A DNA stretch of 30,239 nucleotides from Kiritimatiellia bacterium (GTDB lineage Bacteria; Verrucomicrobiota; Kiritimatiellia; RFP12; DVOR01). Location of the stretch: NCBI GenBank assembly GCA_017457555.1, contig JAFTHG010000098.1, positions 1-30,239 on the forward strand, given 5' to 3'. The first letter of the stretch is position 1; the number at the start of each line of letters is the position of its first letter. This document shows positions 631 to 22,475 of the stretch, one piece after another. Made by a program: the position numbers and the translations under genes. The notes beneath the pieces were generated by a model, which worked only from the letters and a program-made list of their open reading frames with translations, was not told the DNA's origin and did not search any database.

Positions 631-636
631 GAGGAG
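631..636 (+). promoter_or_regulatory. Shine-Dalgarno site of the giant gene
   Basis: GAGGAG lies 7 nt upstream of ATG 644, which opens a typical signal peptide. The track's TTG 617 has no such site. Confidence 0.8.
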
Positions 637-643
637 TCCGACT

Positions 644-3600
644 ATGAAAACTACGTGGATAAAATCATTCCTTGCTACTGGCATTAAGTGGCTGCCCTGC
701 ACGGTGTTTCTAACCGCTGCGCTCGCGACCACAGTGGTTCAGGCGGCTGAGGTGTCGTATTCGTGGAACAAAAAGAAAGGCTTTGTTGATGCAACAGGCA
801 CTCCTGTGGTCATTGACAAAGACTTCACAATCACCGCAAAGTTCACGATGCCATCAACGGTCAACTCCGGAGATGTGATTGTCTTCAATGCCACAAAGGG
901 CGATGGTACGTCTGTGGGTGGTCTTGGCGTCAAAGGCTGGTCGGGCACGCAAGTTTCGTATCTCGTGGGTGAGGCAACGCAAGGTTCCGGTGGTCACTAC
1001 TCCGAGGATCGTTTCTCAAATACCGACACCAAGGCAAATGGTTCGGGCGTGAATACACTGACGATTACGGCGACAGGGTTTAATGCCGGAGCAGTGGCAT
1101 CGTCCAACTTCAAGATGGATTTCGCCGGAGCTGGAACGGCGGGTTCTGTGGAGAACAATGGTGCTTCGGGTGAAGCGGGACCGACAAATGGCAGTTTCGG
1201 CACGGATCCTTTCTCGTTCACGGGCGTAACGCTGGCGGACGGAGCAAGCTTAATCAGCGCAACACTGACGATGGCGCTGCCGGATCCTGTTTGGGAGTGG
1301 GATGGCACAAAGACTGATGGCACGCTGTGTGACACGGTGAAAACGTTGCCAACGAAACTGGGTGAAACGGTTTATTCGGTCAGCGGTCAGATTTTTGACT
1401 TAAGTACGTTGAACATTCCGTCAAAGACGTTCTCTTTTGCTTTCTGGACGACGCGTGAAGGTCCAGCCAACTGGCGCGACTATGCCGGTTTCGCTAACGA
1501 AGAAGGGTATTTGCAAGTTCAGCGCGATGATACGGGCATCTTTGTGCAATGCTATCTCCAGGATGGGCCAACGTGGGGTTCCGGCAATAATCTGCCGTTT
1601 GCGCTCTCCTCGGTGTCCTATCAGCGCGTGGTGCTCGTACACGACACGACGGTGGTTAAAGTCTATGTGGACGGTAAGCTCATCTCCACAAACACGGTGA
1701 ACAGTGATACGTGGGCGAGTTTGTCCAGCGATACGGGCATCATGAAGTATTTCGGTCTGGGCTGTGCGCCGTCTAAGACGGGTGGCGACAATGGTCGTGC
1801 AGGGACTGCATGGATTGCCGATGCGCGTATTTACAATGTGGCACTGTCGGCGGGTGAAGTGGCCGCCTTCTACAATGCGTATGACTTCTACACCGAAACC
1901 CTTGGATTGAAGCGTTCGACTTCAACCGCTTTGATTGAAGGTGGCAAGTACAGCATCAAGGTGTCGGCTGCGGAAGCCGCGGCAGGGACGCTGCAGATTG
2001 CAGTGCCCAATACTGCGGCAGTCACGGATATCACCTGGGATGTGCGCTACTTTGACGAGGTGGAAAATCTGACGGCCACCTTTGATGCCGCAACGAAGAC
2101 CTATACTTTCTCCTTCACGCCGATTACGGAAGTGGGCGTTGAGAATGCCGAAGTGATTGCGGTCAACTTCGTCAATGAGTACTCGCAGTTGACGGGTGCG
2201 TTCAATAACATGGAGATGGTCGGTTTCGCCGCTCCCGGAAAGGGTGACAAAATCGCATTGCGCCACTGGAATCACTTCCAGATTGCAAATGGTACCAATG
2301 TGGCAACAACGGGTTCGGAAGGGGGCACCTACACCTTGTCGTGGTCTTCGCCTAATGTCTGGTACAATGGCAGCACCGATTCCACCGTGGGTAAGTTGCT
2401 TTACGGGTATCTGGATAATAATTTCAGCCTGACGCTGGAAGGTTTGCCGGTGACGGGCTACGATGTGGCCATCATCAGTGGTGGTGACGGTGGAGCCTTC
2501 AGTCCGATTACGGTGAATGGTACGGCATACATCGGCAGCGAAGGCGCTACGGTTGAAGGCTCCGGAAGCTGGGGAACGCGTTCAAATGGCGGTGCTTTGA
2601 CCGAGGGCACAAATGTGCTCTATGTGCCCAATGTTTACGGGTCGACACTGGAAATTTCACAACCGAATAACGCAACAAATGCCCGTGGCGCTTTGTCTGC
2701 CATTCAGGTCTTTATCCATCCGGCGGCTGGGGCTCAGGACTTTACGGCGGCACCTTCGGGAACGTCGGTCACATTCAGTTCCATTGACTGGGATGAAGGC
2801 ACCTTTGTGGGCGGTGAAGCCAATACGGCAACGCTGACGTTGGAACCCGGCACCACGCTGACGTTTGACGAGTCGCCAATGTTGGCAGAGTTGAAATTGA
2901 TCTCTTCGGGAGAGGTGACGGTCGCTCTGGGTGGTTCGGTAACGTCGCTGGATATTGCTTTGGCCGATATCAATTCGTTCAACTATGCTGAAGTCGGTCA
3001 ACTGAATATCGGCTCTCTGACGGCGACAGCGCTGACGGCTCCCGGCGGTACAACGTTGGCGATGGTGTCGCCCTCGCAAATCACTACGCTGACACGTGCC
3101 AACGGGTCAACGATCAAATTCTCGGAAGCCGTAACAGGCGAAGAGTCGGTCCTGCTGCTACAGGATAACACCACGGTCGAAACCACGGGTAATGTGACCA
3201 TCAACGGTTCAATCAAGGAAACGTTGAAGGGACGCGGTTGGACGCTTTCGGGTGGTACTTCCACTATTTCGGACAGCTTCTATCTGGCAGCCGGTGCTGC
3301 ATGGGCGAACCCGGGGAACAAGGCTTCGCTGAAAATTGAAAATGGTGCCACGTTAACCGTGAATGGCACAGCATCAACGCTTGGCCGCAACAAAACCGAT
3401 GGCGCCATGATGTTCGCTGAATGCGGCAATGGTTCAACGGTGACGATTACGGGTGAAGGCTCTGCGCTCTCTGTGCCGAATGGTGCGATTAACCTTTCGC
3501 GTGACGGCGCTACGACAGCTACCGTTTCGGATGGCGCCTCGCTGACCGCCTATAAGCTGGGCGGAACCTCTAATTCCAGCACTCTGACGATTAATAATGC

Positions 3601-6600
3601 TACGTTGGTGCTCGGCAAGGCCGATGCCACAGATGGCACCGTGCAGATGACGGCCGGCAAGTTGATTCTGGATGGTGCAACGCTTTCAGCCAATGGTGAC
3701 TGGAGTGTCAATACGGGGTCAACTGCTTCTCAGATTGAAGTGGCCAATACGCTGACAGTTAATCCCAATGGCAAGACGATTACGTTGCGGAATATGACCT
3801 TCCAGACGGGGGCTGCGCTCACCGCAACCGGTTCCGGCGTACTGGATATCCGTGAACTCTCCGGTATGGATGCTTATACCAAGACGCTTTCCGGCACGGT
3901 AAATGTGAAGACCGCTGCAGGCTCGGAAGGCACGGTGACTTTGGGCGATGATGCCACGATCACCCTCTATCTCTCCAGCCAGCAGATGATTACGGGCTAT
4001 ACTGCTGCAGGAGTGACCGGTAATGGCACCATTGTTTTCATGGATCCGGACGGAAATGAAGTGACTGAAGGCGTTTCCGGAAACGTTTACTTGCCGGCAA
4101 CGCCGCGTTGGACGGCAACGACTGCAACAGGCAGCTGGAGTGACACTACGCTGTGGAGCACAGGCACGGTTCCGACCTCGGGTGATATTGTAATTGATAT
4201 TACGGGTGTGACGGACGATGTGACGTTGACCGTGGATGCTACAACCACGCTGGGCACGGTAACGGTGCTCGGTGGTGAAAACACGCTGACCTTCAGCCCG
4301 ACCGCAACGAATGCGTTGACGGTTTCAAAGATTGATCTTTCGGCCAATACCGATGTCCGCAATGGAATCACGTTAACGGCAGATGGCACGGTGGTCATTG
4401 CAGAAGGCGCGACACTGACGGTGCCGAATAATATGGTCTATTCGGGTGATGCAATCAGTTTGGCGGCAGATGGCTTGCCTGCCCGTGTGACAGGTCCGGG
4501 CACGCTGGCTCTCGATTTGGGCGCAAGTACTTCGGTGAATCTGACAGGCTCCAATGCCAATTATAAACTGGGGCTTACGGTGCTCTCCGGTACGCTCAAT
4601 CTTCCCAATAAGGGAGGTGACGGTCCGGGTAAGGGACGTATCATTACTGTTTCAGGCAGCTCTTCCAAGTTGAAGCTCTCCAATGATGATGCAATGGGGT
4701 GGAACTATGCGGCAGGCCAGAAGGTTGCTCTGTATGATGGCGGCACCCTGTGGATCACAAAGCGTGACACAATGGTGGCAGATGTGGATATGCGCGCCGG
4801 TAAGATATTGTTGGACAAGAGCGCGAATGCAAATCGTGGTTTGGACTTGTATCATGCCAATATCTTTACTGTCTATGCGGCAGAGGGTGCTACTGCGACT
4901 GCGCCTACAGAATCGTCGTTCACCTTCTCAAGCGATACGGCCACAGCAGGACAGACCGTGTTAATCCGTGATGGGGACTTGACCTTTGATGTAAAGGCCA
5001 ATGCTCGCTTGACGGTTGATGCAAAGTTGGTTGCCGGTGAAGCAGGATTGAATGCCGGCGGCACGCCCGGTAAGCTCATTAAGAATGGTGACGGTGAATT
5101 GGTGTTGACCGCCGCCAACACCTATAATACGGTTACAGACGTGAATGCCGGTGTGGTGACGCTTTCGGGTAATGGTAAGTTTGGCTCCGGCACGGTGACG
5201 CTTGCCTCGGGTGCCGTGGTGAATCTGGTCGTTGCGGATGGTGCTACGAAGAATCTGACAGCGTATGGTTCGCTCAGCGCTGTGGCAGGCTCTATTATAA
5301 GGAAATCCGGAGCAGGTGCTTTGACGATGGATACCGCCTTTGCCGGAAAGGTGGAAGTGCTGGGCGGAACGTTGGCACTGGGAACACGTCGCGATGTGAC
5401 AATTGCCGCTTTGGCAGATGGCGCTGTGGTGGAATTAACCCGTGCAACGGGGGAACAAACCATTACCATTCCGACGACGCTGACGGCAGCACCTGCAGCA
5501 TCGGCTTTCTCCATTGCGGGACAGGCTCCGGAAAGCGTTACGTTGGAAAATGGCAATCTTGTCGTAACACCGCGTTCGGCAAGTTATTACTGGGTGCCGG
5601 CAGGGACAGATACGAACTGGTTGACCCTCAACAACTGGCGTTTCGGCAGTGTGACCGGGTCGGCAGCAACGGAACTTCCCACCGCAGTATCAGACGTGTA
5701 TGTTGTTGTGCCGAAGACAACGGCAGTAACGCTCACATTGGATGGCGATGTCACCGTGAACACGATGACGGTGCTTGCTTCCGGCACAGGCGAAAATGGT
5801 ACACTGACAATCGATGGTACTGCTTCCCTGACAGCCACTTCCTTGACGGTCGAAGAAGCTACGGTTGAAACGGCAAAGTTGAATGTACCAACCGTTACAT
5901 TGAATACCAATGCTCAAGTAATCGCTACGGTCGCAGAGGGGACAACGTGGAATGTCAACCGTCTCTCCGGTGTGGGTACCTTCGTTAAGAATGGGGTAGG
6001 GACGCTTCAATTAGCAGTGCCCTCTTCAACGGCCCGTACGGTTGCAGAAGGTGTGACGATTACGGTCAATGATGGTGTGTTGCAGACTTACCTGAATGGT
6101 AATGACAACAATCCGATCTTGAAGAATGTGGTCTTGAACTTTGCAGCAGAAGCCGATGGCTTCCGTTCGCATGGTTGGTTAGGCTTGGATGGTTCTGTCA
6201 CGGTGAATACGGCTGCAGATTTGACATTTGCTGCGGCGGTAGGTGCCGTTCCCTCACTTCAGGGCTCTGGCACGTTAGTGAAGCAGGGCGCAGGAACCTT
6301 CACGTGGGATTTGCGCGGTGGTGAACATGCCAATCCGATGACGATTGAGGCAGGAGCAATTGCCTTTGCAGGAAGCGGTTCGCAAACAGCGGCAATTTCG
6401 GGTGCCGGTCAGGTGAAGATTCCTACTGGTGCAACGATTACCTTTACCGTGGCGAATACCTATTCTGGCGGCACCTCTATTGTTGAGGGAGCAACCTTGA
6501 CCGCCAATGATACGAATGGTCTTGGCACAGCGGCAATCACGGGTGCCGGTAAGCTGATTGTGAACGGTTATCCTGCCAATGCTACTGTCCGTAATTCGCT

Positions 6601-9600
6601 CGGCGATACGGCATGGATGGGCCACTATGTGAATACGGCTGACAACACTCTGGCAGATAACGGCAATTGGTTGGGCGCTGTAGGTAACACCTCTTCCATT
6701 GTTGAATTCACGGGTGTGAATGCGGGGCACTTGGCTAAGGCCGGTTCAATGAATGCCACATTAAAAGTGACCGGTTCCATTACATTGAATAATGGATGGA
6801 GTAATAATGGCGGTTACACCTTTAATGGCGCACTTTTGGGCGAGGGTACTCTCGCTACAACGGGTGATCAGACCGATGTCTTGAAATTCCTCGGCGAAAC
6901 AAAGGATTTTGCAGGTACAATCAACGTTGCGGGCAGTCATTGTGTTGCCTTTGGTGAACAAGCTGATGATGGCACTAAGGTTGGCATGCTGGTGGTGCAG
7001 ACCGGTAAGACGGCAAACATCGCCGCAGGAAAGATCTGGACGGCTGTTAATGGTATTGAGGTCGCTGGTACGTTGAGCGGCACCGGTAAGATTGGTGATG
7101 AAACGGGTGCAAACGGTACCTTGAAGCTGGTCGCAGATGCGTGTCTGGATGTGACGGGTGGCACGTTGACCGTGGCAACGCTGGATACGCTTCCGGATAC
7201 GCTGACGGTGAAGTCTGCCGGCGCTCTGGTTACCATTACAGATCGTATTGATGTGATGACGGTGACGGAATCGGTGCCGACGTTGACCGATGTCACCGTG
7301 ACGCTTCTGAATGCAGAAGGTCAGAGCCTGGGTGCGGATTACGCATTGACCTCTACCACCAATGCAGATGGTGACATCATTATTCAGGTGATGTTGGCAG
7401 AAGAAGCAGAAACCTATACTATTAATATGGTAGAGGATGGCATCACCTCTTTGACGGAAGCTCTCGCGGGCGGTGTCTTCGGTGCTGGCGTTACCGCATT
7501 GCCGGAAGAATCCTTCAATCTGGTCATTAACTTTGGTGACGTTGCTGCTGGTGGAACGGCGGTTCCCGGTACGTTTGATTTGGATCACGCTACGGATGTG
7601 AAGATCTCCGTTTTGACGGTGAAGGGAACCAATGGCGGAACCGTGACACAGACCTCCGAAAAGGATGTGACTGTGGCGCAGACGACAATTGTTTCCGGCG
7701 TGGAAGTGGCTTTACCGGTAACATTGGTTGCAAAGACGCAGGTTGCAGATGTGGCAGCAGATGCGCGTCTGGTGATTCAGGTGCCGGATAATGCCGGAGA
7801 TATTACGGTTGCAACGAAGATCACGGGCGCAGGAGCCGTGGCGCTTGAATTGGCTGATGGCGCAACTGGAACAGGTTCCTCCGTGGTCTTTTCTGCGACA
7901 ACAAGCACCTATGCAGGTGGCACTGCTATCGCCACCGGTACGCATTTGAAGATGGCCGAAGCGAATGTGCTCGGTACCGGCGCTATCTCCGGTTGGAACG
8001 ATGGTTACGGTACGTTGAATTTCAAACCTGTTATCAGCACAACTGCAACGACAGCACCGACACTTGCTACGGACTGGGCGGGTACTGTTGTGCTGGAAGA
8101 TGTTGCAAACGTAAAGGGTTTCACGATTCCGACATATGCGCCAAATGCAAACGCAACGGTGACATTGAAGAATGTTACAGGCTGGTCGGCCACCGGAAAG
8201 CAAACGCTGGTGGGCAACCTGATTTTGGAAGAGAATGGTTATCAGCCGACAGATGGATCGAGCTCAAACCGAGCCAATTTGGTTGTGACCGGTAAATTAA
8301 AGGGCAATGGCTGGATTAAGGCTCCAACGAAGGGTAACTTCTATTATGGTTACAGCTTTGCTGATGCCTCAGAATTCACTGGAAGCATTCACCTTGCGAC
8401 AGGTTATGGCGCACGTACGTCGGTAATCTTCGGCGTGTTGGATTCCTGGTCTTCTGCTTATGATGGCAATGTTACCATTTTGGAAGGTACAACGGCAACG
8501 ATTGCAGAGAGTGCTGTTTGGACTCCGGCTGCAAATCATGCCATTGTTGTAAATGGTACGGTTGGTGGCGCAGGTACGATTGCAACGAAATTGACGGTGG
8601 GCGAGGGGGCAACCCTGTTGGCTTCGGCAGATTCCTGCCTGAAACTTGCCGCAGATACAACGTTGAGTCTGCCTACTCAATTCACTGTGCAGTTGCCTGA
8701 AAACACAACACTCCAGCCCGGTGTTCCGTTTGTAATTTTGGATCGTGCTGATACGACAACGCTTTCGGTGACCGGTTCGACCGTGACGGTGATGTCTGGT
8801 ACAACGCCTGTTGAAGATGCCATTCTGAGTGTGACAACGGATGGTGATGTGGCCGTTCAGATTCCTGCAGCCTTTGAAGCCGAAGTGTCTGCAGTCAATG
8901 TGGCATGGGAAGATCTTGCTTGGACGAAGGGTGGTGTGGCAACTACCGATAAGCCGTCGGCATTAGATCGTGCGACCTTGAAGGTTCAGGTGGCGGATGC
9001 GTGTATCACAAGTGATACCTTGTTGACGATTGGACAGTTGGCAGTTGAAGGTGAAGCGGTTGCTTTGCGCTTCACGCGTGACTGTATCACGCAAGCGATG
9101 TATGAGGCGATCCCGACAACCGTGACCTTGGTTGAAACTGCAACCGGTCTGGATGAAAAGATTACGGTTCAGGTGGCAACACTCAAGTATGGTGCTTTGG
9201 CCACTGTGACGCAGACTGAAACTGTTGCAACGGCAGCATTGACACTGCCGGAAGGCGCCGCACAGGGCTCCGGTGCAACAATCTATTCCATCAGCTTGGC
9301 TCTGAATGGTTATCAGATTGCTGATACGGATGTGACCGGTCTTGATGGGTATGAAGTGCTTGGTACCAACTGGACGCGAATCACAGGTGGCCAGTCTTCG
9401 GCATCCGGTACGGCCGATTTGATTGCGGTGCCATTGTCGGACGCAACCTCGAATACCGCACAGCAGACAGTAACCGCAGGGGCGATTTCGTATACGGTGG
9501 GGAATAACTTCTACCGTGCGCCGAATGCACCGATTCCTTTGTTGAAGGGTTATGCTGATGACGGTGGTACCACCTCGCTGTCAATTAACTTGCCAGCTGA

Positions 9601-12600
9601 AGAAGCGGCGAAGGGCTACACTGTGATTGTCTATGCTTCAAATGACTCGGCCTCGGACAATTACAATTTTGCCAACTTCACTGTGAATGACGTCCATTAT
9701 ACAGCGGTAAACGGTAAGACGCAGGAAGGTACGGCAGGATGGGGTAATCCCGGTCCCTACGATTCGTCTGAAAGTGCCTTGGCAGAAGGTGTTAATACGC
9801 TGATTGTTAAGAATCAGACGGCAGCAACGGTGACAATTTCGGAAAACAACTCCGGTAGTTCCCGTGGTGGTTTGGCCGGTGTGCAGATTGTCTTTGAATC
9901 GGTGGACTATGAATTGATTCCCGGTGTGACCGCTACGGTAACGGCCGCAACGGCAGATACTGTTGTTGCCTGGAGTGATTTGACGTGGGTTGATGATGAC
10001 GGTAATCCGGCCACTGCTCCTGTCGCCAATACTCCTGCAACGGTGGTCTTTGAAAGCGATGCCTCACTGGATTTGACTGGTGCAACCGCACTTCAGATTC
10101 AGGTGTTGGGTTACAATCACCGCGTTCGCTTTACCCCGGAGAGTGTGCCGGAAACGGTACCCTTTGTCTTCTCGGAAGACACCATTTACCGTTTGGCTAC
10201 GGCAGCAGATACACTTCCGGAAAATGTGGAACGCATGCCGGGAACACTGCGTTATGAATATACGTATGATGCTACAACAACTGCATACGCCACAATTTCG
10301 AAGACTGTGAGTGACTTTACGGAGGGCTTCTCCGGAAACTTCTCGGCCAATGGCGGTACGATTCGCTTCTCGGGCGGAGAAGTGGTGCTTCCGAATGTCA
10401 ACGGCTCTGCCACGGCGACGACCGTTGTCTTTGGCGGTACCAGCCGTACCACTGTGGCAGATATCATGCGCTTGGGCGAAGGCGAATTTATTGTACGCGA
10501 TACGGCCTCTGTGACGACGTCTCGCCTGTCGCTTTCGGATGGAGCGCCCGGTTACACGACGGCTTTGACGTTGGAAGATTCGGCGCAGATCCGCGTGACG
10601 GGCACCACGAATGTGGATCAGAATACCGCATCGATTATGGTCGGCCACTGGAATGGTGTGTCCTCGTTGACATTGCGTGACAATGCACGCTTGATTGCAG
10701 AAGCCACCGATGTGCTCGTGGGTAAGACGGGTAATACGCAGACCATTACCTTGGAAGGTGGTGAAATGCGCGTCCGTGGCGTAAAACTTTCGGCAAATGC
10801 CAGCGGTACAAATACCTTGACGCTGGCTGGCGGTACGTTGCTTGTGGGTAAGACGGGCATCAATCACTATGGTTCCACCACGTTGGCTCTCAATTTTGAG
10901 GGTGGAGCTCTGGGCGCTTTGACGGATACGGTAATGTTGGGTGCCGATGCGGCTGCGACAATTGCCACGTTGACAGGGACTCCGACGTTTGCCTCTGAGG
11001 CAGATGCGACACTGGAATTGACACAGGAAGAACCCTTCTTAACGGGTGGTGCTGTGGTTAATCAGAGCGGCACGTTGCAGGTGGGCGATATCACGTTGAA
11101 CGAGATGACGCTTGAAGGTGGCACGTTGAAAGTCGTGGGTGGTTTGGATGTTGAAACCCTCACCGCAGCGTCCTCAAGCAAAATTGCCTTTGATCGCGGA
11201 GTCTTGACGGCGACAACGTGTACTTTGAGTGACCCGGTGACGCTTGAAATTCCCCTGCGGAATCGTCTGAGTGAGGGTGGTTATATCCAGATGCGAAATG
11301 GTGGCGTATTGCCGGATTTGAGTGGTACTATTGTGTCGCTTGTTCTGGATGCCAATCGCACGGATGCAGAAAAGGTCTTACCGGAAGTGCCGTTGGTGCT
11401 CGGTGCTTATACCGATGGCACAGAGCCTAATGTGAAGGGCTTCGGTTTAACCAATAACACCAATAACGCCATCGCCGATTCCGAATTGGTTTTGCAGCAG
11501 GGTGATTTGGGCGCAGGCCTTTATGTGTCCCTGACGGGTACGGAAGTCTTGAAGCGTCACGATGCTATCTTGAATCAGACAACTCCCGGCACGGGCTATG
11601 ACCTGTTGCAGAATACGGCAGATGCTTATCCGTACTATTACTTCACCGCAACGGTTTCGGATGCACGTCTGCTGATTCCGGCCGGTGGTGTTGCCGTGTC
11701 GCATCCGACCTTCTCCGGCGAAAAGACACGTATTGTTGTCGCCGGTGATACGATGGTAACGCCGTTGAAGGCCAACAGTGTTGCAATTACGACAGACATT
11801 ATCTTTGACCTCTCGGCATGGGCAAGCGTGCTGCCGGACTTTGTCCGTGGCGCTGTGCGTGATGTGCCGGCTTCTTTCTGCCTGATCAGTGGTGGTATTA
11901 CCATGGCAGAAGGCGTCACTCTTGAAGTTGATACGGGAGACTTTGAAATTCCGGCGGGCTTTGACGTAAGCGTTGAGGCAACCAAGGATGGTCTCTATCT
12001 GGTCATTGCCGCCAACCGCCCGGCTCATACGGTGTCGGTGAACTTCACGGATGTGACAACGCCTCTGGTCGCGCCTCCGGCCAAACCGGGTGTCTATGCA
12101 ACCGATGTGGTAGCTTGGAATGATTTGAATTCGGTTTACTCGTCGGCCGCACTCAAGGTGACTGATTTTGGCGGTATGCCTTCAACGACGGCAACCTCGG
12201 TGGATGGCACGGAGGCAACACGTTTGTTGGTCTACACCTCCAAGGTGAATACATTTGCCGATGCGCCTTCTTCGATGCTGAAGGTCTGGTTAAGTGACAC
12301 AGCAGAGCAGACAATCCGCATTCAGAATGTACCGTTTGAAGCCTATCGCGTGGCACTGATCTTCGCAAATGATTTGGAAGCTGCCGCGTATGCTCCGATT
12401 CAGGTGGGCGAGGGTACGTACACGATGGATGGCGAAGGCTACACGCGCCGCGACATCTCTGCCTACACGGTAAAGCATGCAACAACCGGCCTGGTCACGC
12501 TTGAAGTGTCCGGTGATGCAGCATGGGGAACTACCGATGCACCGGAAGCCGCCGAACCTGTGGTACTGGGGCAGAATGCGCTGATAACGGATGTTTTGAC

Positions 12601-12640: not shown

Positions 12641-12682
12641 GGTCGCCTCTATGCAGGTTTGGCAGCCCTGCAGATTGTGGAA
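12029..12682 (+). repeat. Unnamed beta-sandwich domain, copy 3 (spans the TAG)
   Basis: VSVNF...MLKVWLSD...VPFEAYRVALIF...AAWG...LGQNAL...ELEIVVPAAV*GRLYAGLAALQIV. Confidence 0.7.
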
Positions 12683-15600
12683 GCTTCGGAAGTAGCTGCC
12701 GTCACGACAGCTGCAACCTACAGTTACACCTTTACGACGGCGGGTGAATACAATCTTGCCGATCTGGTGCTGACAACGGCGAGTGGTTCCACATCGTGGG
12801 TAAATGCCACATCCAACAGTTTGGCTCTTACCAGTGACGTGGATGTCGTAGTAACACTGCCGATAGATTTCGTGGCAGACACTGTGGCGCTCGCCGGTGC
12901 GGGTAAGATTACCTTGAAGGTAGAAAATAATGGTGGTGCACTCCTCAATACACTGGATGCGTCTGCCATGACTGGCGATGTTACGATTGACTTCGCATGT
13001 CAGGATGTCGCTTTCTCGGCTTCTGCAGGGACAACGACCTTCAATAAGGCGTTCAATAACAACGGTCAACCCTATGTGATCGCAGAAGGTGCAACGCTCG
13101 TTCTGGGTGAACAGAGTGGCATTACCACGAATATGGAACCGACGCTCTTTAGCACCAATTCGGCGATGCTTGCGATTGACAGTGCCTCAAAGGGAACTTT
13201 GCGCCGTAACTATCCGGTGACACAGAATCGTCCCGGTCAGTATGGTTATGCGTGGGATATCACGTTGGCTTACCGTGATGCAACCTTTACCAATGATGCT
13301 TATTGGCAACCCAGTTTGTTAATTGAAGAGGGGGATACGCTTCAGACAGGTGGCAATAACCTCTGGGTCACCGGCAATACCACACGTCGTACATTCACCT
13401 ATCGTCAGACAGGTGGCACGTTCACGATGGGGAACACAACGAATAATAATAATGGTTTCCTCTTTGGACCTGCCGGAAATAATGCTCAGGTTGATGGCGA
13501 TATCACCATTTCCGGTGGCCGTTTGCATACCTCTGCTATTCTGGCATGGGATGCTTCGGCACAAGTGGCCGTGACGGTTTCTGGCACGGGTTGCCTGTCA
13601 CTCTGGAATAAGTTGCACGCACAGCAGAATGCAGCTGTAACGGCAACTTTCTCGGAAGGTGGTACTCTGGAATTGGCAAATACCGCATTGAATAAGGGCG
13701 GTACGGGCTCGGTGACGGTCACCTTCAATGGAGGTCGGATTACCACGCAGCAGCCGACCTCTACGATGACGCTTCCAGTGGCCTTCACAGGTACGGACGT
13801 GGCTCCGACCACGCTGGCTCCTGAAGAAGGTTGTACATTGGTCTTGAATGCAGAAAATACGGGATCGGGCGTGATTGAAGTTACGCGCGGAACCGTGGCG
13901 GTGGCGAATGCCGCTGCGCTCGCATCGACCTCTACCACAGTGAAAGCGGGAGCCACCGTTGAAGCACGTGGCTTTGCCGCAGGTACCGCAATGAGCAACA
14001 CCGTGACCTTTGAAGAAGGCGCAACACTCTCGGCGACGGCTGCCGATGGTGTAACGACGGTTCGCATTGCGGGTTCGCTGGAGTTGCCGGCGGATCAGAG
14101 CACGATTCACTATCGCTTGAATGGCGAACTCTATGATGGCGTGACGGTGGATGCTACTGCCGGAACGGTCACCTTCACCACAAAGGTGACGGTGACGGAT
14201 GTCACTTGGGATGCCGCGCAAGATGCCGGCGTCTGGGGTGAAGGTATTGCCGGTCCGTGGGTGGATGGCGCAACCTATTACAATGGTGCTGCTGTTACGT
14301 TTGTGAATGCAACGCCAGCCAAGGTGGATGTCACGGTGCAGGGCGATGTGCGTCCCGGCTCGGTGGCATGGGGTGCCTCGTCTGCGGATACCTACCGTTT
14401 TGTCGGTGCATCTGATCTGTCGTTCCTGACGCTCACAAGCGCGACACCTGATATGGGATCTGGTCAGGTTTATGAAATTCCGGTGGCAACGTCAAGTGCC
14501 GCGGCCCTGTCCGGCAACAGCAACATCTACCGTTTGATTGGTGAACTTTCCAACGGTCGTAAGACGGCCTCGCTGGTAAGCGCATCCAATAATGTCCTCA
14601 ATCGTGAGAATGGTGATGGCACAGAAGCGTTGAACCATGGTGTGTGGTGCACGGAGGGTGTCACACTTACGCCTCTGGCTGGCGAAATTCAAATCGTTTC
14701 GGCCATGGGGTCGACGGATACGGCTAAGCGTTCGCACCTCTCCGGTTCGGGCAATGTCACCATTACAGGTGGCGGCACCGTACAGTTTGGTGGTCGTGTA
14801 ATTGAAACAAGTGCAACTGATGTGCCTTATCAGAACAAAGCCTTCTCCGGCCAGATCATCATTCAGGACGGTTCGACTTTGGATATCACGATGGTGCGCG
14901 ATCGCAATGACGCTGCGTATCGTGCTCGCGATGACTACTCGTTCTTTGCAACCACACTTGGCTTGGATGGCAATGCGTTAACCACTCAAGATGGGGCAGG
15001 CGCTCCCTTGTGGATAAATGATACTGTCGGTGTCCGCGTATTGGATGGCGGCACTTTCCGTGTGTCGGGTTGCCGCAGTATCTTTGGTGGTTGGGCTAAC
15101 CGCAATGATACCAACCTGATCGCTTCGTATCCGTTGGAAATCGGTACTGAAGCAACCGCAGAGTTCAGCTTTGCGGCACTTGAACAGGTCTTCCCGCACG
15201 GCTTCCGCTTCATCGGTAATGGTGCAACATTGTTGGCCACGCAGAATATGTTTGTCACTGGTGGTACGACCTTGAAGGTTGCCGGTATCGGTGATGACGG
15301 CGATCGTGCTGATCCTGCAACGGATACGGCTCTGGATACCAATGGTAATCCTGTCAATGCAGATACCTATGGTAAGTTGACGGCAGGTATTACGGCTGAA
15401 ATCGCTTCCGGTGCCACAACGGGTCTGGTGCCGTGGAGTCAGCCCAATTCGGCCGCGAATCCGCTTGAACTTGCGGTTGGCGAAGGTTCTACCTTAAACA
15501 TCACGGCAAATCTCCTGGCGTTGAATGGCAATGCAGCCTCTCGTGGCCGTTTCTCCTTCAAGAAGACGGGCACAGGTGTTGTGCGCTTTATGCAGACGAT

Positions 15601-18600
15601 GATTGATGCGGAAACACAGATTCAGGTGACGGAAGGCGCCTTAGGTGGTTCGGCAACCTTTACGGCTGCCGGCACCGCTGTAACCGCCGCTGCCGGTACG
15701 ACGGTGGAAGCTGGTCTCTCGGTTCCGTTGCTGTCGTTGGCAGACTCGGTGACTATGGCGATCAATCCCACGGGCGCAACCGTATTGCACGCAGATCGTC
15801 TCACCTTCACGGCGAGCGGCCGCTACACCATCGCCTCGCTCTTGCCAGAAGCAGAGATTCCGGAAGCAGAAGGACTGCCGGCAATGAAGGTGGTCAGTTG
15901 GAATACAATGCGCGCAGCAGACTCGGCAATCTTTACGCTGGACGATGTACTGACGGCAAAGGGTTATGGTCTGGAATTACGGACAGATGGTCTTTACCTC
16001 ATGAAGCAGGTGACCTACGTCCGTGAATTGGATATCGCCACAGCGGGTTCACATCGTGTGGTCTGGTATTCCAATAAGGCGTGGTACCGTTTGGATGATG
16101 CGGCGAAAACCCCGCGGAATTATGATCCTGAAGCGGGTGAAGCGGTGACCGCACTCTTCCTTCTGCCGGAAAGCTTTGCCGCAGAAAATGCTGCATTGCC
16201 GAAGATTACGCTGGTGCTTTCCAAGGAAGTTGCCTTCGCCAATATCCGCTTCGCCGCTCCAGTGGAAGTGAATGGTGAAACCACGTTGAAAACGCTTCCG
16301 GTGACGGTGGTCTACGAGTACAACCTCACCAATGAAACGATGCCTGAGGCTGATCGCGCCGTTCGCTTCACGTGGGTACCGACGCTTGTTCTGATGCGTG
16401 ATGGTAATCCGGGTCTGGCGAGCCTGCAGGTCAGTGTGCCGACGGGTTATGAATACACCGTCAGCAATACCACGGTGATGGTCTACGCTTCGGCTGCAGC
16501 TCCGGCACTGAATATCAACTTCACAGAGGGTGTTGCCGGCGATGCAACGTGGGTTGCAGAAACCGCAGATCCTTGCGGCGCCGTGCCATTTGCCGGAGTC
16601 TATTGGAACAATGCTTCCACAACCAATGGTAATCTCTTGCTTGAAGAAGGCAATCATTCGGTCATGTTGCTGTCGGCTCTGCCGGCAGGTATTGAACCGA
16701 ATGCCGAGGGGCAGGTTGTCCCGTGCGAAGTGACGTATGCCTTCAATCAGGCAACCTCCGTTTCCTCGCGGATGACGGGTAATGATGATGCCGCAATTGT
16801 TGCAGGCTTCCTCGCCGGAAATCGAACGAATGCGCTGACGGAATCGATCCTGACAGCTGGAAACTTCACCAATGCCGGAACGCAAAACGGCTGGCAGGTG
16901 CGTCTTGCCTCGGTGCCTTTTGAAACTTATGACCTTTATCTCATTCTGGCAGGTAATTCGGATGATACGGTGACGTATCCTTCCATCCGTGTCAAGGTGG
17001 GCAGTGCAGATTGGCGCACGTTCTCAATGGTTAATGGTTGGGCCGCTCCGGCAAATCGCACAGCGACATGGCAGGGCGTGGGCAATCTGGTCAAGGGCGA
17101 ATTCGTGGCTGGCAAGAATATGCTTCACCTCCGTGTTCAGACGGCGGCGGGCAGTTCGCTTGAAATTGCTCCATGGGATAATGGCCAGACATCGGATGGT
17201 GCTGCTGCGGCAGTGGGTCTGGCGGCACTCCAGGTTGTGCGTTGTGATGACGCAGCCAAGCTGGAACGTGTCGGAGCTGGTAAGTGGTCGGATGCCGGTG
17301 GCTGGCGCTGGTCAATCACGGGTGGTACGGACTCCGGCGCATGGTTTGATGCAACGGCGGAAAAACCGCACTACGCCGCCATTCCGATGGTACAGCAGTT
17401 GGATGCAGACAAGATTGTTTCGGTGCCGTATCTGGCACTGACCGGATCGGGTTCGATGATTCTGAAGGGTACGGACGCTGCAATTTCGACAGGTACTCTG
17501 GATTTGAGTGCGGTTGAACCCGGAGCCTCGCTGACCTTCGGTGCAGACGTTTTTGCCGAACCTATTAACGTGATTTTGGCTCCGGAAGTAACGATCTGTG
17601 TGCCGGAAAGCAGCACAGGGACGGTTGAAAACTATTGGCGTTGGTTGAATGATGATGCCGGCAATGGAGTGGATTCCACGTCTGCAACCATTCAGAAGAA
17701 GTTGGCAGGGGATGTAATCTTCTTCAATCCGATCTCGGCCAATCTCCAAATTGATGACGGCACCTTGTGGCTGGCATCCAATGCTAATGGTTCTGCCGCC
17801 GGACGTGTCTCCGGTGCGGGTACCTTCGGTAAGAAGGGCACGGGCACGTTGACCCATTCGGGCACATTCTCGCTCTCGGGCTCCACACCGATTCGCGTGT
17901 CGGAAGGTACGCTTGCGCTGTCGAACGCCTTGACGGGCATCTCGGGCGGTTCCACGGTTTTGGTGGATGGCGGTCGCTTGGAAATGCCTTCTGGCGGTGG
18001 TTTCACCACAGGCGCAATCGTCCGTTTGGAACGTGGCTTCCTGCTCTGCCGTGGTACGATGACAAACAATTTGCCGGTTGCACGTCTGGCGAATGGTTCA
18101 ACAATCCGCATTGATGGCGTTGGCGGTTGGCAGGGTTACACCTTCCAGTCGATGATTGCAGAAGGTGGTAATAATGAACTCATCGTTGCCAGCGCTGGTG
18201 CTGGTGGCGCTTGCGTTGATGTGCGGAATGAATTTGTTGTGATGCCGGGTGCAACATTGACGGTTACTCGTCCATCCAGTGGTGGTTTACGTGTTATCTC
18301 CGGTGTCGTTGATGTCCGTGATGGCGGTACATTGATTACGAATTCCCGTATCGGTCGTGGTAATGCCAGAGGTTACGGCTCCGCAACGGACTTGCTGACC
18401 AAGAAGGGCGCAGGCCTTTGGCAGATTGGGCAGGTGCTCTCTGCAAAAGGTGACGCATCCTGGGGGCAGACGTTGGATATCGCAGAGGGTGAAGTGCGCT
18501 TCGCTCTAAATGGTGCCAACTACGATGCAGCAAATGAAACACCGATTACGGTTAAGGCCGGAGCCCGGATGTCTGGTAATGTAACCTTCATTGATAAGTC

Positions 18601-21600
18601 TCCTGTCACCTTTGAAGAGGGCGCGATTGTCCGTAATGGTGTACCGGGTGTTTCGGGTAGCCGTCTGACCTTCCATACTGTTACCTTTAATAAGGGCACG
18701 GTCTTTGAGATGGATCTGCGGAATACCACTGCGCTGACGATCAGCAATGCTGCGACCTTCACGGCAGGTGAAATGTCGGTGCGTCTCTTGAATATGGGCG
18801 AATCCTTCACGGGTGAAAAGCAACTCATTGCCTGGCCGACTACAACGGGCGTGCCGTGCACCTTCACCTCGCCGGAAGCGATGGCGTTGGATGCGGTGCT
18901 TGAAACGCGTAATGATGGGCTTTACCTCGTTGCTTCGAATGCCTCTTACGTGTGGGCTGATCAGACAGATGTGTGGTCCTTGGAGGATGGCTGGGTCTAT
19001 CAGGGCACAGCAATCTCGTATCCTGAAATGGACTCGACCACGGATGAAAACACTCCTGTAGCACGTCTGGTGGCATTTGATTCGGATGTGACCGTGACGG
19101 TTGACAAGGGTGAAGCACTTGCCGATGGTGCCGTATGGAAGGCAAAGTCCCTGATTGCCGCAGTGAATGCGGGCAAGACCTTGACGCTTACACAGGGTGC
19201 CACGTTGACGGGAGCCACGAAGCTCAATGCGGTGATGGCATGGAGTGATATCTGGAAACTGGGAGAGGGCGCGGCCATCTTCAGTGCACCGGTTCAACTC
19301 CGCAATGCCGGAGCTGGCGCATCGGTGAATGTGGCAGACGGCACCTTGACCCTGACGCATCCGATTACGACAACATTGCCTCCGACAGGCACGGCGTTGA
19401 CGGATGTGCCGGCAGATGTGGAAATTGCTGCCGACAGTGCGTTGGTCTACAATCTCTCTGCTTCGGCAGAGGAGTTGACGGTAATCAACAGTGCCTATAA
19501 TCCGCTGATGCAGACGTTGACCGGTGCCGTGACGGGCGAAGGTACGCTCCGTGTCCTTGGCGCAGACAATACGATTGTCCTTTCAACAACGGCTGATAGT
19601 GATGTGAATCTGGATGTTCAGGCAGGCCAGTTGACATTGAATGGCGAGGTGGCTCGTGGCGCAGCCCGTGCCACACGCCGCACCATCACGGTGGCGAAGG
19701 GAGCACAGCTCGCATTGGATGCGGAATACGTCCTCGGCGGTTCGACCAACATTCTCTGGACGTTGGCTGCTGATGCACAACAGGGAGCACAGGTCACGAC
19801 CTCTGGTGGTGCCCGTGTCCGCGGTGCTATTACGGTGACTCCGACCGACACTACGGCGCAGAATATTGCCACGTTGGGCACGACATATGCACAGTTGGAT
19901 GCGGCAACACGCATTCATGTCCCAGCTGCTACCACATTGGAAATGGGTGGCGAATGGGTCACGCCTGAAGATGCTGCACTCACAACGTCCCTGACGAAGA
20001 CGGGCGCAGGTCTGCTGACGATGACTGACTTCGACTGTAATATTCCGGTGACGTTGGCAGCAGGTGAAATCCGTTTGGGTGCCAATGCAGTGGATACGGT
20101 GAATTATAATGACCGTGCCACCACGCCGATTTGGACCATCGCTTCCGGTGCAACGCTCTCTCTGGGTGGCGGTACCTTCTCGTTGGACAATGGTGCTTTG
20201 GATGTTCAGTCCGGCGCGGTGTTGAATGGCGGTGTGGCGACGACCACTATTGATGCTGCCACGACCCTTGCAGATCGCACGGTGTTGACCTTTGGCGAAA
20301 GCAACTCAATCAACGTGGGTTCGATTCAGTTCAAACAGGCGACTGTGGTCAATGGCGTGATTACGGTCAATCTGGATGCCCTTTCTCCGGCAGACCTGAA
20401 TCAGACGAGTGTGACTCTGGTCACCTTTGATAATGGTATGCGTAATGGCACGGGCTCCTTCCAGCTCGGCGGCAATAAGTTGGTCGCATGGGCTGAAAAT
20501 GGTTGGACGCTGCGTGACAATGGCACGGAAGTGATCTTGCAGCACTTCGGTGGCGACACGGGTTATTACACCTGGGCTGGTGACGGCACGGCGGGTTCCA
20601 CAGGCGTGGGCAACTGGGCTAACGCCTTCTGGACGTCCTCGGCGGATTCCACAACCCTCGTGGCATGGCCGACGACTACAGATGTGCCGCCGTCGGTGAT
20701 GTTGCAGGATGTCAGCCCCGTGGATGGGGAAGCTATTCCGGAAGAGGCTCGTACGCTTGACTGGACGCTGCCATCGCAGGCGCTTGAATCTTTCTATGCG
20801 AAGAATAGCGATGCGGCCGATTACAAGATTACCTCTTCGAATGGTTCGGCACCGTTTGAAATTACCGGTGACTTCCTTAAGGCGGGAAGCGGTAAGCTCA
20901 CGGTGGAACGTCCGATTATCCTTGGTAAGGAAGGCGCTTTGCGTCTGCTCGGCGGTGAAACGGAATTGACCGGTTCCCTGACGGCTTCTTCGGGTGAATT
21001 CAAGAAACCGATTACGTTGGCTGGTGCCGATACGGTGCTGCGCTTCTCCGGCACCTCTTCTCGCGTCCTGATGGGCCTGCTGGAAGGTGACGAACAGGCC
21101 ACCCTGATTCAGTCCGGCACTGGCACACTGACGATCGGTGACAGCGTGGATAAACTCAAAGCCCTGGCTGTTGAGGCTGGTCATGTGCGCTTGATTGCAG
21201 ACGGTCAGTATGTCGTGGCTCCGGCTGTGACGGTGGCTGCGGGCGGCACCTTGACCTATGGCGGTACGTTGAGTGGTGCCGGCACGGTGCAGATGAGCAT
21301 GAATGCCGCAACGGCTCCGGCCGGTACGCTGGTCTGGAGTGCCACCACGCCGTCGGCTTCCGATAAGGCTCCGCGCTTGGGTGTACCTGCCGGACTTACG
21401 GATGCGGCCATTAAGGTGGACACCTTCCGTTATCAACCGGATGGCGGTCATCTGATTCTCGATCCGAATGCAGCCGTTTTGGCTCCCGGCTTCAAGCTTG
21501 AGATGATGGCTTCTGATGAAGTGACCTCGGCGCTCTGGCTGGGTGCTCAGGCATCTGCCGGCGATGCACTCACGGTTTCGAAACTCTCCGGCACGGGTAT

Positions 21601-22420
21601 CATCGGTGTGGAACCGGTGGTTGAACTCCTCTCGGATGCAACGTGGAGCACGCACCGCACCCTTACGGTGGCTCCAACCGCAACGGATCTTGCCGCAGTG
21701 GAAGCCTTTGAAGGTTCTCTGATGGGTGCGACCACACCTGACGGCACAGACATCCATGTCGGCTTGACAGTTCAGAATCCGCAGGGTGGCGCTCGGACCT
21801 ACTTCCGTTACATGGGCACCTCGACGGATCTGCTGCTCGGTACGTTGGCAATCGGCGCCGATGCCGGTGCTGAAGTGACCGGAACTTGGGCTGGCGATGT
21901 GGCTGTTGCCAATGGAGGCCTCCTGATGGGTAACGGCACTGTCGGCGCTACCGGCCGCACCGTGTCTGTGCCGAAGGGCGCAATCCTCTCCGGTACGACC
22001 TATGGTCGCCGTATTCAGCCCAATAACACCTACACCTCGGAAGTGATTCCTGCCGAGTTGACGGTAAAGGGCACACTCAGCCTTGAAACGGGTTCGGTGC
22101 TGAATACGATGATTCGTAAGGATGCCTCGGGCAATACTTGGGTCTCCACGGTTACGGCCGACAATCTCCAGCTCCCGACGGTGCTGGAAGATGGTGCCGA
22201 AGAGGTGATGCTCACGGTCAATGTGGATATGGAAGCTGGCGTTGTTGCCTCCGGCGTGAAGATTCTCGGCTGGACGAGTTTGAATGGCGGCCAGAAGATA
22301 AACGGCACAGTAACAGTCACGGTGAATGGCGAAGTCGTTCCCGGTTACTCGCTGCGTAAGAAGAGTGACGGTCTCTACCTCTACCGTGAGAACGCGCGCT
22401 TCTGGATGATTCTCCATTAA
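12641..22420 (+). CDS. Giant surface protein, C-terminal segment (3,259 codons, same frame, directly after the TAG)
   Basis: The frame is open from 12641 (GRLYAGLAALQIVE...). The track's TTG 12659 has no SD and no signal peptide. Same composition and repeat types as the first half (FKKTGTGVVRF, FGKKGTGTLTH, LTKKGAGLWQI, LTKTGAGLLTM, FLKAGSGKLTV, LIQSGTGTLTI). Ends ...DGLYLYRENARFWMILH-TAA. Confidence 0.85.
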   Translation, partial: GRLYAGLAALQIVEASEVAAVTTAATYSYTFTTAGEYNLADLVLTTASGSTSWVNATSNSLALTSDVDVVVTLPIDFVADTVALAGAGKITLKVENNGGALLNTLDASAMTGDVTIDFACQDVAFSASAGTTTFNKAFNNNGQPYVIAEGATLVLGEQSGITTNMEPTLFSTNSAMLAIDSASKGTLRRNYPVTQNRPGQYGYAWDITLAYRDATFTNDAYWQPSLLIEEGDTLQTGGNNLWVTGNTTRRTFTYRQTGGTFTMGNTTNNNNGFLFGPAGNNAQVDGDITISGGRLHTSAILAWDASAQVAVTVSGTGCLSLWNKLHAQQNAAVTATFSEGGTLELANTALNKGGTGSVTVTFNGGRITTQQPTSTMTLPVAFTGTDVAPTTLAPEEGCTLVLNAENTGSGVIEVTRGTVAVANAAALASTSTTVKAGATVEARGFAAGTAMSNTVTFEEGATLSATAADGVTTVRIAGSLELPADQSTIHYRLNGELYDGVTVDATAGTVTFTTKVTVTDVTWDAAQDAGVWGEGIAGPWVDGATYYNGAAVTFVNATPAKVDVTVQGDVRPGSVAWGASSADTYRFVGASDLSFLTLTSATPDMGSGQVYEIPVATSSAAALSGNSNIYRLIGELSNGRKTASLVSASNNVLNRENGDGTEALNHGVWCTEGVTLTPLAGEIQIVSAMGSTDTAKRSHLSGSGNVTITGGGTVQFGGRVIETSATDVPYQNKAFSGQIIIQDGSTLDITMVRDRNDAAYRARDDYSFFATTLGLDGNALTTQDGAGAPLWINDTVGVRVLDGGTFRVSGCRSIFGGWANRNDTNLIASYPLEIGTEATAEFSFAALEQVFPHGFRFIGNGATLLATQNMFVTGGTTLKVAGIGDDGDRADPATDTALDTNGNPVNADTYGKLTAGITAEIASGATTGLVPWSQPNSAANPLELAVGEGSTLNITANLLALNGNAASRGRFSFKKTGTGVVRFMQTMIDAETQIQVTEGALGGSATFTAAGTAVTAAAGTTVEAGLSVPLLSLADSVTMAINPTGATVLHADRLTFTASGRYTIASLLPEAEIPEAEGLPAMKVVSWNTMRAADSAIFTLDDVLTAKGYGLELRTDGLYLMKQVTYVRELDIATAGSHRVVWYSNKAWYRLDDAAKTPRNYDPEAGEAVTALFLLPESFAAENAALPKITLVLSKEVAFANIRFAAPVEVNGETTLKTLPVTVVYEYNLTNETMPEADRAVRFTWVPTLVLMRDGNPGLASLQVSVPTGYEYTVSNTTVMVYASAAAPALNINFTEGVAGDATWVAETADPCGAVPFAGVYWNNASTTNGNLLLEEGNHSVMLLSALPAGIEPNAEGQVVPCEVTYAFNQATSVSSRMTGNDDAAIVAGFLAGNRTNALTESILTAGNFTNAGTQNGWQVRLASVPFETYDLYLILAGNSDDTVTYPSIRVKVGSADWRTFSMVNGWAAPANRTATWQGVGNLVKGEFVAGKNMLHLRVQTAAGSSLEIAPWDNGQTSDGAAAAVGLAALQVVRCDDAAKLERVGAGKWSDAGGWRWSITGGTDSGAWFDATAEKPHYAAIPMVQQLDADKIVSVPYLALTGSGSMILKGTDAAISTGTLDLSAVEPGASLTFGADVFAEPINVILAPEVTICVPESSTGTVENYWRWLNDDAGNGVDSTSATIQKKLAGDVIFFNPISANLQIDDGTLWLASNANGSAAGRVSGAGTFGKKGTGTLTHSGTFSLSGSTPIRVSEGTLALSNALTGISGGSTVLVDGGRLEMPSGGGFTTGAIVRLERGFLLCRGTMTNNLPVARLANGSTIRIDGVGGWQGYTFQSMIAEGGNNELIVASAGAGGACVDVRNEFVVMPGATLTVTRPSSGGLRVISGVVDVRDGGTLITNSRIGRGNARGYGSATDLLTKKGAGLWQIGQVLSAKGDASWGQTLDIAEGEVRFALNGANYDAANETPITVKAGARMSGNVTFIDKSPVTFEEGAIVRNGVPGVSGSRLTFHTVTFNKGTVFEMDLRNTTALTISNAATFTAGEMSVRLLNMGESFTGEKQLIAWPTTTGVPCTFTSPEAMALDAVLETRNDGLYLVASNASYVWADQTDVWSLEDGWVYQGTAISYPEMDSTTDENTPVARLVAFDSDVTVTVDKGEALADGAVWKAKSLIAAVNAGKTLTLTQGATLTGATKLNAVMAWSDIWKLGEGAAIFSAPVQLRNAGAGASVNVADGTLTLTHPITTTLPPTGTALTDVPADVEIAADSALVYNLSASAEELTVINSAYNPLMQTLTGAVTGEGTLRVLGADNTIVLSTTADSDVNLDVQAGQLTLNGEVARGAARATRRTITVAKGAQLALDAEYVLGGSTNILWTLAADAQQGAQVTTSGGARVRGAITVTPTDTTAQNIATLGTTYAQLDAATRIHVPAATTLEMGGEWVTPEDAALTTSLTKTGAGLLTMTDFDCNIPVTLAAGEIRLGANAVDTVNYNDRATTPIWTIASGATLSLGGGTFSLDNGALDVQSGAVLNGGVATTTIDAATTLADRTVLTFGESNSINVGSIQFKQATVVNGVITVNLDALSPADLNQTSVTLVTFDNGMRNGTGSFQLGGNKLVAWAENGWTLRDNGTEVILQHFGGDTGYYTWAGDGTAGSTGVGNWANAFWTSSADSTTLVAWPTTTDVPPSVMLQDVSPVDGEAIPEEARTLDWTLPSQALESFYAKNSDAADYKITSSNGSAPFEITGDFLKAGSGKLTVERPIILGKEGALRLLGGETELTGSLTASSGEFKKPITLAGADTVLRFSGTSSRVLMGLLEGDEQATLIQSGTGTLTIGDSVDKLKALAVEAGHVRLIADGQYVVAPAVTVAAGGTLTYGGTLSGAGTVQMSMNAATAPAGTLVWSATTPSASDKAPRLGVPAGLTDAAIKVDTFRYQPDGGHLILDPNAAVLAPGFKLEMMASDEVTSALWLGAQASAGDALTVSKLSGTGIIGVEPVVELLSDATWSTHRTLTVAPTATDLAAVEAFEGSLMGATTPDGTDIHVGLTVQNPQGGARTYFRYMGTSTDLLLGTLAIGADAGAEVTGTWAGDVAVANGGLLMGNGTVGATGRTVSVPKGAILSGTTYGRRIQPNNTYTSEVIPAELTVKGTLSLETGSVLNTMIRKDASGNTWVSTVTADNLQLPTVLEDGAEEVMLTVNVDMEAGVVASGVKILGWTSLNGGQKINGTVTVTVNGEVVPGYSLRKKSDGLYLYRENARFWMILH
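16505..17242 (+). repeat. Unnamed beta-sandwich domain, copy 4
   Basis: LNINF...IVAGFLAG...VPFETYDLYLIL...ATWQG...AGKNML...SLEI...VGLAALQVV. Confidence 0.65.
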
Positions 22421-22436
22421 GTTGAGAACACCATAC

Positions 22437-22475
22437 AACAAAAGAGGCATCGGAAACGGTGCCTCTTTTGTTTTT
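22437..22475 (+). terminator. Intrinsic, probably bidirectional, terminator after the giant gene
   Basis: AACAAAAGAGGCATCG-GAAA-CGGTGCCTCTTTTGTT: 16-bp stem with one G-U pair and a GNRA loop, followed by a T run, starting 17 nt after the TAA. Confidence 0.9.

Follow-up and report, generated by a model that had tools for sequence, protein, structure and literature searches.

We examined a stretch of 30,239 nucleotides (nt) from a Kiritimatiellia bacterium (assembly GCA_017457555.1, contig JAFTHG010000098.1), referred to here as the window, in which positions 644 to 22420 of the forward strand form a single reading frame of 7,258 codons whose sole internal stop is the TAG at 12638–12640. The two large open reading frames (ORFs) on either side of this codon are one gene. 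Its product is a secreted surface protein that contains beta-strand repeats, a LamG domain, domains resembling carbohydrate-binding modules (CBMs), and a C-terminal tail. The TAG itself is probably a consensus or base-call artefact of the metagenome-assembled genome (MAG) to which the contig belongs; the organism would then make the full-length protein of ~7,258 amino acids (aa), and the TAG would be no part of the design of the gene. The MAG amounts to 1.91 Mb in 322 contigs and is 84.75% complete, with the window being the whole of one contig (C60). The host appears to be an uncultured gut bacterium of the Planctomycetes–Verrucomicrobia–Chlamydiae (PVC) group, from the same genus as Candidatus Spyradenecus.

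From ATG 644, the frame runs for 3,998 codons to the TAG, which is codon 3999, and then for another 3,259 codons. The corresponding entries in the ORF list, 617/644..12640 and 12659..22420, lie in this one frame, and the TAG stands in the context GCT GTG TAG GGT CGC. Judging from the sequence, chance cannot have produced two such long frames joined by one stop. An earlier note on this DNA had treated the two frames as a single broken gene, and comparison with relatives upheld this model. A 400-aa query laid across the stop matched 21 of 24 congeneric species genomes, in every case without interruption, in open frames of 2,245 to 9,797 aa, the shortest of which sit in fragmented MAGs where contig ends may cut them. 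The 90% cluster that holds the window protein also contains two conspecific proteins of 7,258 aa from other assemblies, P0005 (from Logan) and P0006 (from ENA). They differ from the window protein at 45 and 7 residues, respectively, and both are intact, with tyrosine at residue 3999 (Y3999) and leucine at residue 3994 (L3994). A wider search yielded 43 full-length relatives of 4.7–7.8k aa, some of them named as Candidatus Spyradenecus sp., Lentisphaeraceae, or Kiritimatiellae MAGs; Candidatus Spyradenecus was itself named from chicken-gut MAGs (PMC8035907).

NCBI annotates two separate proteins here, one of 3,998 aa and one of 3,253 aa that begins from TTG 12659, the very division that had been predicted of standard annotation. 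Taken at face value, this record of the halves as separate proteins describes two genuine adjacent genes, a reading to which we attach next to no probability. The boundary between them would fall inside a folded domain. No Shine-Dalgarno-like sequence comparable to that of ATG 644 was found 5′ of the start candidates after the TAG, and no promoter-like or terminator-like site stood out near the junction. The signal peptide is present only on the first half and the conserved tail, which lies past the TAG, only on the second; both the lack of starting signals on the second half and the lack of a tail on the first agree with the earlier note. Since every homologue is continuous over the site, the two-gene reading is refuted, and the two NCBI entries should be read as one gene for a 7,258-aa protein.

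The stop lies inside the third copy of a domain that occurs four times along the protein (Table 1), as had been proposed from the letters and translations. Alignment of the copies, each ~190–250 aa in size, showed that the four-copy domain is real yet divergent, and it places the TAG 13 residues short of the end of copy 3. An AlphaFold2 model of aa 3780–4030 of the intact conspecific protein, calculated from an input alignment of 38 sequences, gave a confident beta-sandwich (predicted local distance difference test score, 84.7; predicted template modeling score, 0.83). The final strand of copy 3 in this model comprises aa 4006–4013 and so follows codon 3999, for which reason a product ending at the TAG is predicted to have an incomplete domain. 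A Pfam search of the four-copy domain matched no family, and Foldseek comparison of the domain with the PDB returned nothing at E ≤ 0.001. Its nearest AFDB clusters were CBM6/CBM35/malectin-like, with weak similarity (template modeling score ≤0.54).

Comparison of codon 3999 across conspecifics and relatives, which the earlier note had suggested, gave tyrosine in both conspecific assemblies and, in the 18 congeners read, TAT in 14 and TAC in 4. Because congeners use these two codons, the TAG is one third-position step from tyrosine, most likely by T to G; with the ancestral codons at 3994 and 3999 reconstructed from the congeners, codon 3999 was most likely TAT. A second change private to this assembly, Leu3994Val, lies 17 nt 5′ of the TAG change, at a residue that is otherwise invariant (Table 1) and is encoded by CTN in 17 of the congeners and TTG in 1. 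Both changes are to G. We found the same TAG in no other assembly among protein clusters, homologues, GTDB genomes, and JGI metagenomes. Exact-pattern scans of JGI metagenomes and GTDB genomes for conspecific DNA returned nothing, a protein-guided scan of JGI metagenomes gave no relative, and conspecific contigs sought through the neighbouring genes gave no record.

The substitution of TAG for TAT (Tyr) and the Leu3994Val change would both be artefacts of a fragmented, probably low-coverage MAG, carried jointly on one erroneous read or k-mer path. That both are technical rather than biological in origin is something we infer from comparisons of assemblies, not something seen in reads. The TAG is private to one assembly. 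Besides the stop, the 7,258 codons hold three private residues, Val3994 and two others, and none of these lies in the 3,259 codons 3′ of the stop. With three private changes in the gene, the probability of finding one no more than 5 codons from the stop is ~0.004 by our own arithmetic. This clustering favours an artefact because decay after a real inactivation would spread along the gene instead of adjoining the stop. Genes split by an internal stop in MAG or genome annotation, whether through consensus errors or as "internal stop" pseudogenes, have the features seen here, namely one substitution at a conserved sense codon, intact relatives, no start signal downstream, and a split annotation; what differs in the window is the second private substitution 17 nt away together with an abnormal substitution spectrum, which point to an artefact.

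The spectrum was taken from 10 genes of the MAG, including the window gene, each of which has copies in two or more other assemblies (~23,300 codons in total). A further 20 long genes of the MAG were looked up, 14 of which could be compared residue by residue with conspecific copies of equal length. Relative to its nearest sister assembly, the MAG shows 4 transitions and 15 transversions in the 10 genes, mostly A<->C or G<->T, whereas the same genes show 63 transitions and 29 transversions relative to a more distant conspecific (Fisher test, p=1.9e-4). As natural variation in these genes is rich in transitions, the differences between near-identical assemblies mostly look technical, and the predominance of transversions among them suggests consensus errors across the MAG. 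Eight changes are private to the MAG, at least three of which are A:T>C:G. Given that the MAG appears to carry error-like substitutions elsewhere, reads are needed before its private single-nucleotide polymorphisms and stops are interpreted as biological.

Other differences among these assemblies were also observed. Contig C276 of the MAG holds two private T>G changes (Trp229 and Gly307). ENA contigs of 13,483, 6,377, and 15,271 nt have the same sizes as MAG contigs C276, C228, and C162, respectively, and their proteins differ at 1–3 residues, which suggests alternative consensus calls on similar data. Within 10796–10864 of the window, P0006 has three Asn-to-Thr differences inside 23 codons, at variable positions. 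The window reads AAT at these, making the changes A>C; here too, transversions of one type lie close together, but they are private to the ENA assembly. As sources of the clustered changes, a diversity-generating retroelement and gene conversion between paralogous copies were both considered and set aside, as the genome holds no second copy or template of 10700–10950, 12540–12720, or 900–1100.

Sequence-specific errors of Illumina sequencing have been described in which GGC lies upstream and the miscall is one of the two preceding bases, with A-to-C and C-to-G cited as the commonest miscalls (Nakamura et al. 2011, PMC3141275). The window resembles that system in several respects: on the reverse strand, a GGC precedes each site by no more than 10 nt, each site takes on one of the two bases before it in that read direction, the changes are clustered, and the favoured classes are A-to-C and C-to-G. 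The likeness has a limit, in that the published errors are defined by strand-specific read mismatches and ours are judged from a consensus. A random substitution in the gene would satisfy both criteria, the GGC and the preceding base, in 5.8% of cases if one strand is specified and in 14.7% if either strand may count. The strong fragmentation of the assembly likewise favours an artefact.

Several considerations weigh against an artefact. At normal coverage, few substitution errors reach a consensus, whereas nonsense alleles are common in large, dispensable surface-protein genes. A paralogous giant gene is split at Gln1821 in another assembly of the species, and in the MAG itself a TAG also cuts another gene for a surface protein, that on contig C302 (both are described below). 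A spectrum rich in transversions could also come from a mutator lineage of very recent origin. The GGC comparison was made after the site had been inspected, and GGC is common in DNA of 55% GC. Lastly, the "GG-ending 3-mer" motif described for errors elsewhere (PMC4787001) is not matched by the two sites, although that work reported preferential incorporation of G.

Some of this would suit a real and very recent nonsense allele, TAT to TAG, in a strain or sub-population, making the gene a young pseudogene or a knockout of a dispensable giant surface protein. We regard this as possible, and clearly less probable than an artefact. The product would be a secreted protein of 3,998 aa without the last strand of copy 3, the C-terminal half, and the conserved tail, and Leu3994Val would either have arisen with the TAG in one multi-nucleotide mutation or be coincidental. 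The TAG does stand in the deposited consensus, genes for large surface proteins are big mutational targets that are often lost, and the complete lack of private changes downstream suits a very young allele as well as it suits an error. The 4,118-aa paralogue split at a CAG codon in the other assembly and the in-frame TAG at a conserved Trp of the leucine-rich repeat (LRR)/InlB-repeat protein on C302 would likewise agree with such an allele. Yet an allele of this kind would have required two rare events, transversions to G that lie 17 nt apart, each hitting a residue that is invariant or nearly so; the spectrum of differences from the nearest assembly is unlike natural variation in the same genes; and two other conspecific assemblies are intact. 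The gene has the marks of a pseudogene, in that its orthologues are intact, the stop replaces a conserved sense codon, and the part after it has no start of its own; these marks do not separate an allele from an artefact because the two readings share them. Overall, the evidence tilts toward error over a nonsense allele.

A stronger form of the nonsense-allele reading strikes us as improbable. Here, the TAG would be real and polymorphic, the lineage would switch off or truncate its giant surface proteins by point nonsense alleles, and the C302 gene and the nonsense-split paralogue would be further on/off or split variants under host or phage pressure. For the adaptive role that had been floated earlier, that of a stop used to shed or switch off the protein, we found nothing in support.

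Programmed amber read-through or suppression, by a suppressor tRNA, pyrrolysine, or a leaky context, would give short and long isoforms from the same gene. The frame is indeed open for 3,259 codons past the TAG, TAG is the rarest terminator in the genome (it closes 37 of the 830 frames that are 300 aa or longer), and another surface-protein gene, that on C302, has an in-frame TAG of its own. Against this, the TAG is not conserved, conspecifics and congeners carrying an ordinary Tyr codon at the site, and the residue replaced is Tyr at one of the in-frame TAGs and Trp at the other. None of the 23 tRNAs recovered by ARAGORN has a CUA anticodon, which is weak on its own because the tRNA set of this 85% complete MAG is incomplete. 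For PylS (TIGR02367), the best match scored 22.7 bits against a cut-off of 178, with aminoacyl-tRNA synthetase-like matches such as those in control genomes; pylBCD were not searched. Release factor RF1 (prfA) is present (449 bits against a cut-off of 423). Pyrrolysine, a suppressor tRNA, and loss of RF1 were rejected on these results. Genome-wide, long frames joined in the same frame across TAG were not enriched relative to those joined across TAA and TGA, and general read-through of TAG was rejected as well. The search for PylS and a CUA tRNA, along lines that the earlier note had proposed, found no recoding machinery, and the ranking in that note of allele and error above read-through stands. 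Read-through is already close to refuted, and we consider it very improbable.

The features of the window that bear on the giant gene are collected in Table 1.

Table 1. Coordinates of the giant gene and its features in the window
Feature	Positions	Strand	Basis
Giant gene, 7,258 codons including the internal TAG	644..22420	+	Single frame; intact conspecific proteins P0005 and P0006; open frames in 21 congeneric genomes
Shine-Dalgarno-like GAGGAG, 7 nt 5′ of ATG 644	631..636	+	Sequence; NCBI, Logan, and ENA calls all start at ATG 644
Probable Sec signal peptide (basic N-terminus, hydrophobic core, VQA/AE)	644..745	+	Inference from the translation, read by eye
LamG-like jelly-roll domain, aa 252–407	1397..1864	+	Pfam PF13385, E=3.3e-11, 44 bits against a cut-off of 27.6
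Unnamed beta-sandwich copy 1, aa 504–690	2153..2713	+	Four-copy alignment
Autotransporter-associated beta-strand repeat	5075..5164	+	TIGR02601, 25.5 bits against a cut-off of 19.85
Unnamed beta-sandwich copy 2, aa 2880–3083	9281..9892	+	Four-copy alignment
Unnamed beta-sandwich copy 3, aa 3795–4012, holding the TAG	12026..12679	+	Four-copy alignment
GTG, Val3994, private to this assembly, at an invariant Leu	12623..12625	+	Leu in P0005, P0006, and 44/44 homologues
TAG stop in frame at codon 3999, replacing a conserved Tyr; seen in this assembly alone	12638..12640	+	Tyr in P0005, P0006, and 40/44 homologues
Unnamed beta-sandwich copy 4, aa 5287–5532	16502..17239	+	Four-copy alignment
Conserved C-terminal tail DGLYLYRENARFWMILH, absent from any product ending at the TAG	22367..22417	+	Homologue comparison
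Intrinsic terminator: 10-bp stem with one G-U pair, GAAA loop, and T-run TTTTGTTTTT	22443..22475	+	Read by eye; 3′ of TAA 22418–22420

The N-terminus of the giant protein is conserved among homologues, and the DGLYL..ARFWMIL[HRQ]-type ending is found in nearly all of the 44 homologues listed, P0032 being the one clear exception. The tail-bearing proteins have no barrel, PEP-CTERM, or LPXTG ending, and the tail is a candidate sorting signal. The beta-strand repeat was also matched by PF12951, at 21.5 bits, under its cut-off of 27. The terminator after the gene was missed by the pattern scan. Five ORFs in the window end in TAA, and a small ORF at 327–632 ends in TGA; the earlier note had listed five other credible genes or segments, all with TAA.

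The giant gene cut by a stop is a sound observation, if an ordinary one, and its practical outcome is a correction of annotation together with a warning about the private substitutions of this MAG. The earlier description of the protein as exceptionally large was overstated: its size is notable, not exceptional, because frames of up to 9,797 aa occur in congeners and bacterial proteins of up to 85,804 aa have been published (bioRxiv 10.1101/2023.11.21.568195). It resembles the giant genes of that study (West-Roberts et al. 2023) in being very long, repeat-rich, and secreted, with lectin-like or CBM-like domains and largely without Pfam annotation. It differs in its 7.3k aa, modest beside 30–85k aa, and no SecA-like or multi-transmembrane features were seen. 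With type V autotransporter passengers, it shares a Sec signal and the autotransporter-associated beta-strand repeat (TIGR02601), but the last 359 aa (6900–7258) matched no C-terminal beta-barrel family, and a short ARFWMILH-type tail is found there instead. Family scans of the whole protein for autotransporter features found only the PATR/TIGR02601 repeat. The conserved family to which the gene belongs, of 5–10k aa, almost wholly unannotated, and from poorly known gut bacteria, has the LamG domain, the four unnamed CBM-like domains, and the C-terminal tail, and it may merit study apart from the stop.

Other giant or split genes occur in the species. On the minus strand of contig C302, a gene for a protein of >1,574 aa with LRR and InlB-B-repeat domains fills the 4.7-kb contig and has a TAG at L051:1782–1784. 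Homologues read GYVFAGWTPEQ where the MAG reads GYVFAG*MPEQ, with Trp in 89 of 90 homologues. This results from two substitutions, three bases apart, that turn the adjacent codons TGG-ACG into TAG-ATG and leave a stop with a start codon directly after it. Here again, a stop is paired with a neighbouring change at a conserved residue, as a local error process would produce, but the stop-start junction could also be biological. No conspecific copy of the C302 gene was found, the best matches being 78–83% identical over the queried region. Contig C68 (locus L042) carries a paralogous gene of 4,118 aa, for which another ENA assembly has proteins of 1,820 aa and 2,295 aa, with the break at codon 1821, which is CAG (Gln) in the MAG. 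Since that assembly breaks this gene at Gln1821, nonsense-split giant genes recur among assemblies of the species. The giant genes of this 1.9-Mb MAG further include ones of 4,118, 3,982, and 2,564 aa (contigs C68, C111, and C127, respectively), and with several of them present, giant surface proteins take up much of a small genome.

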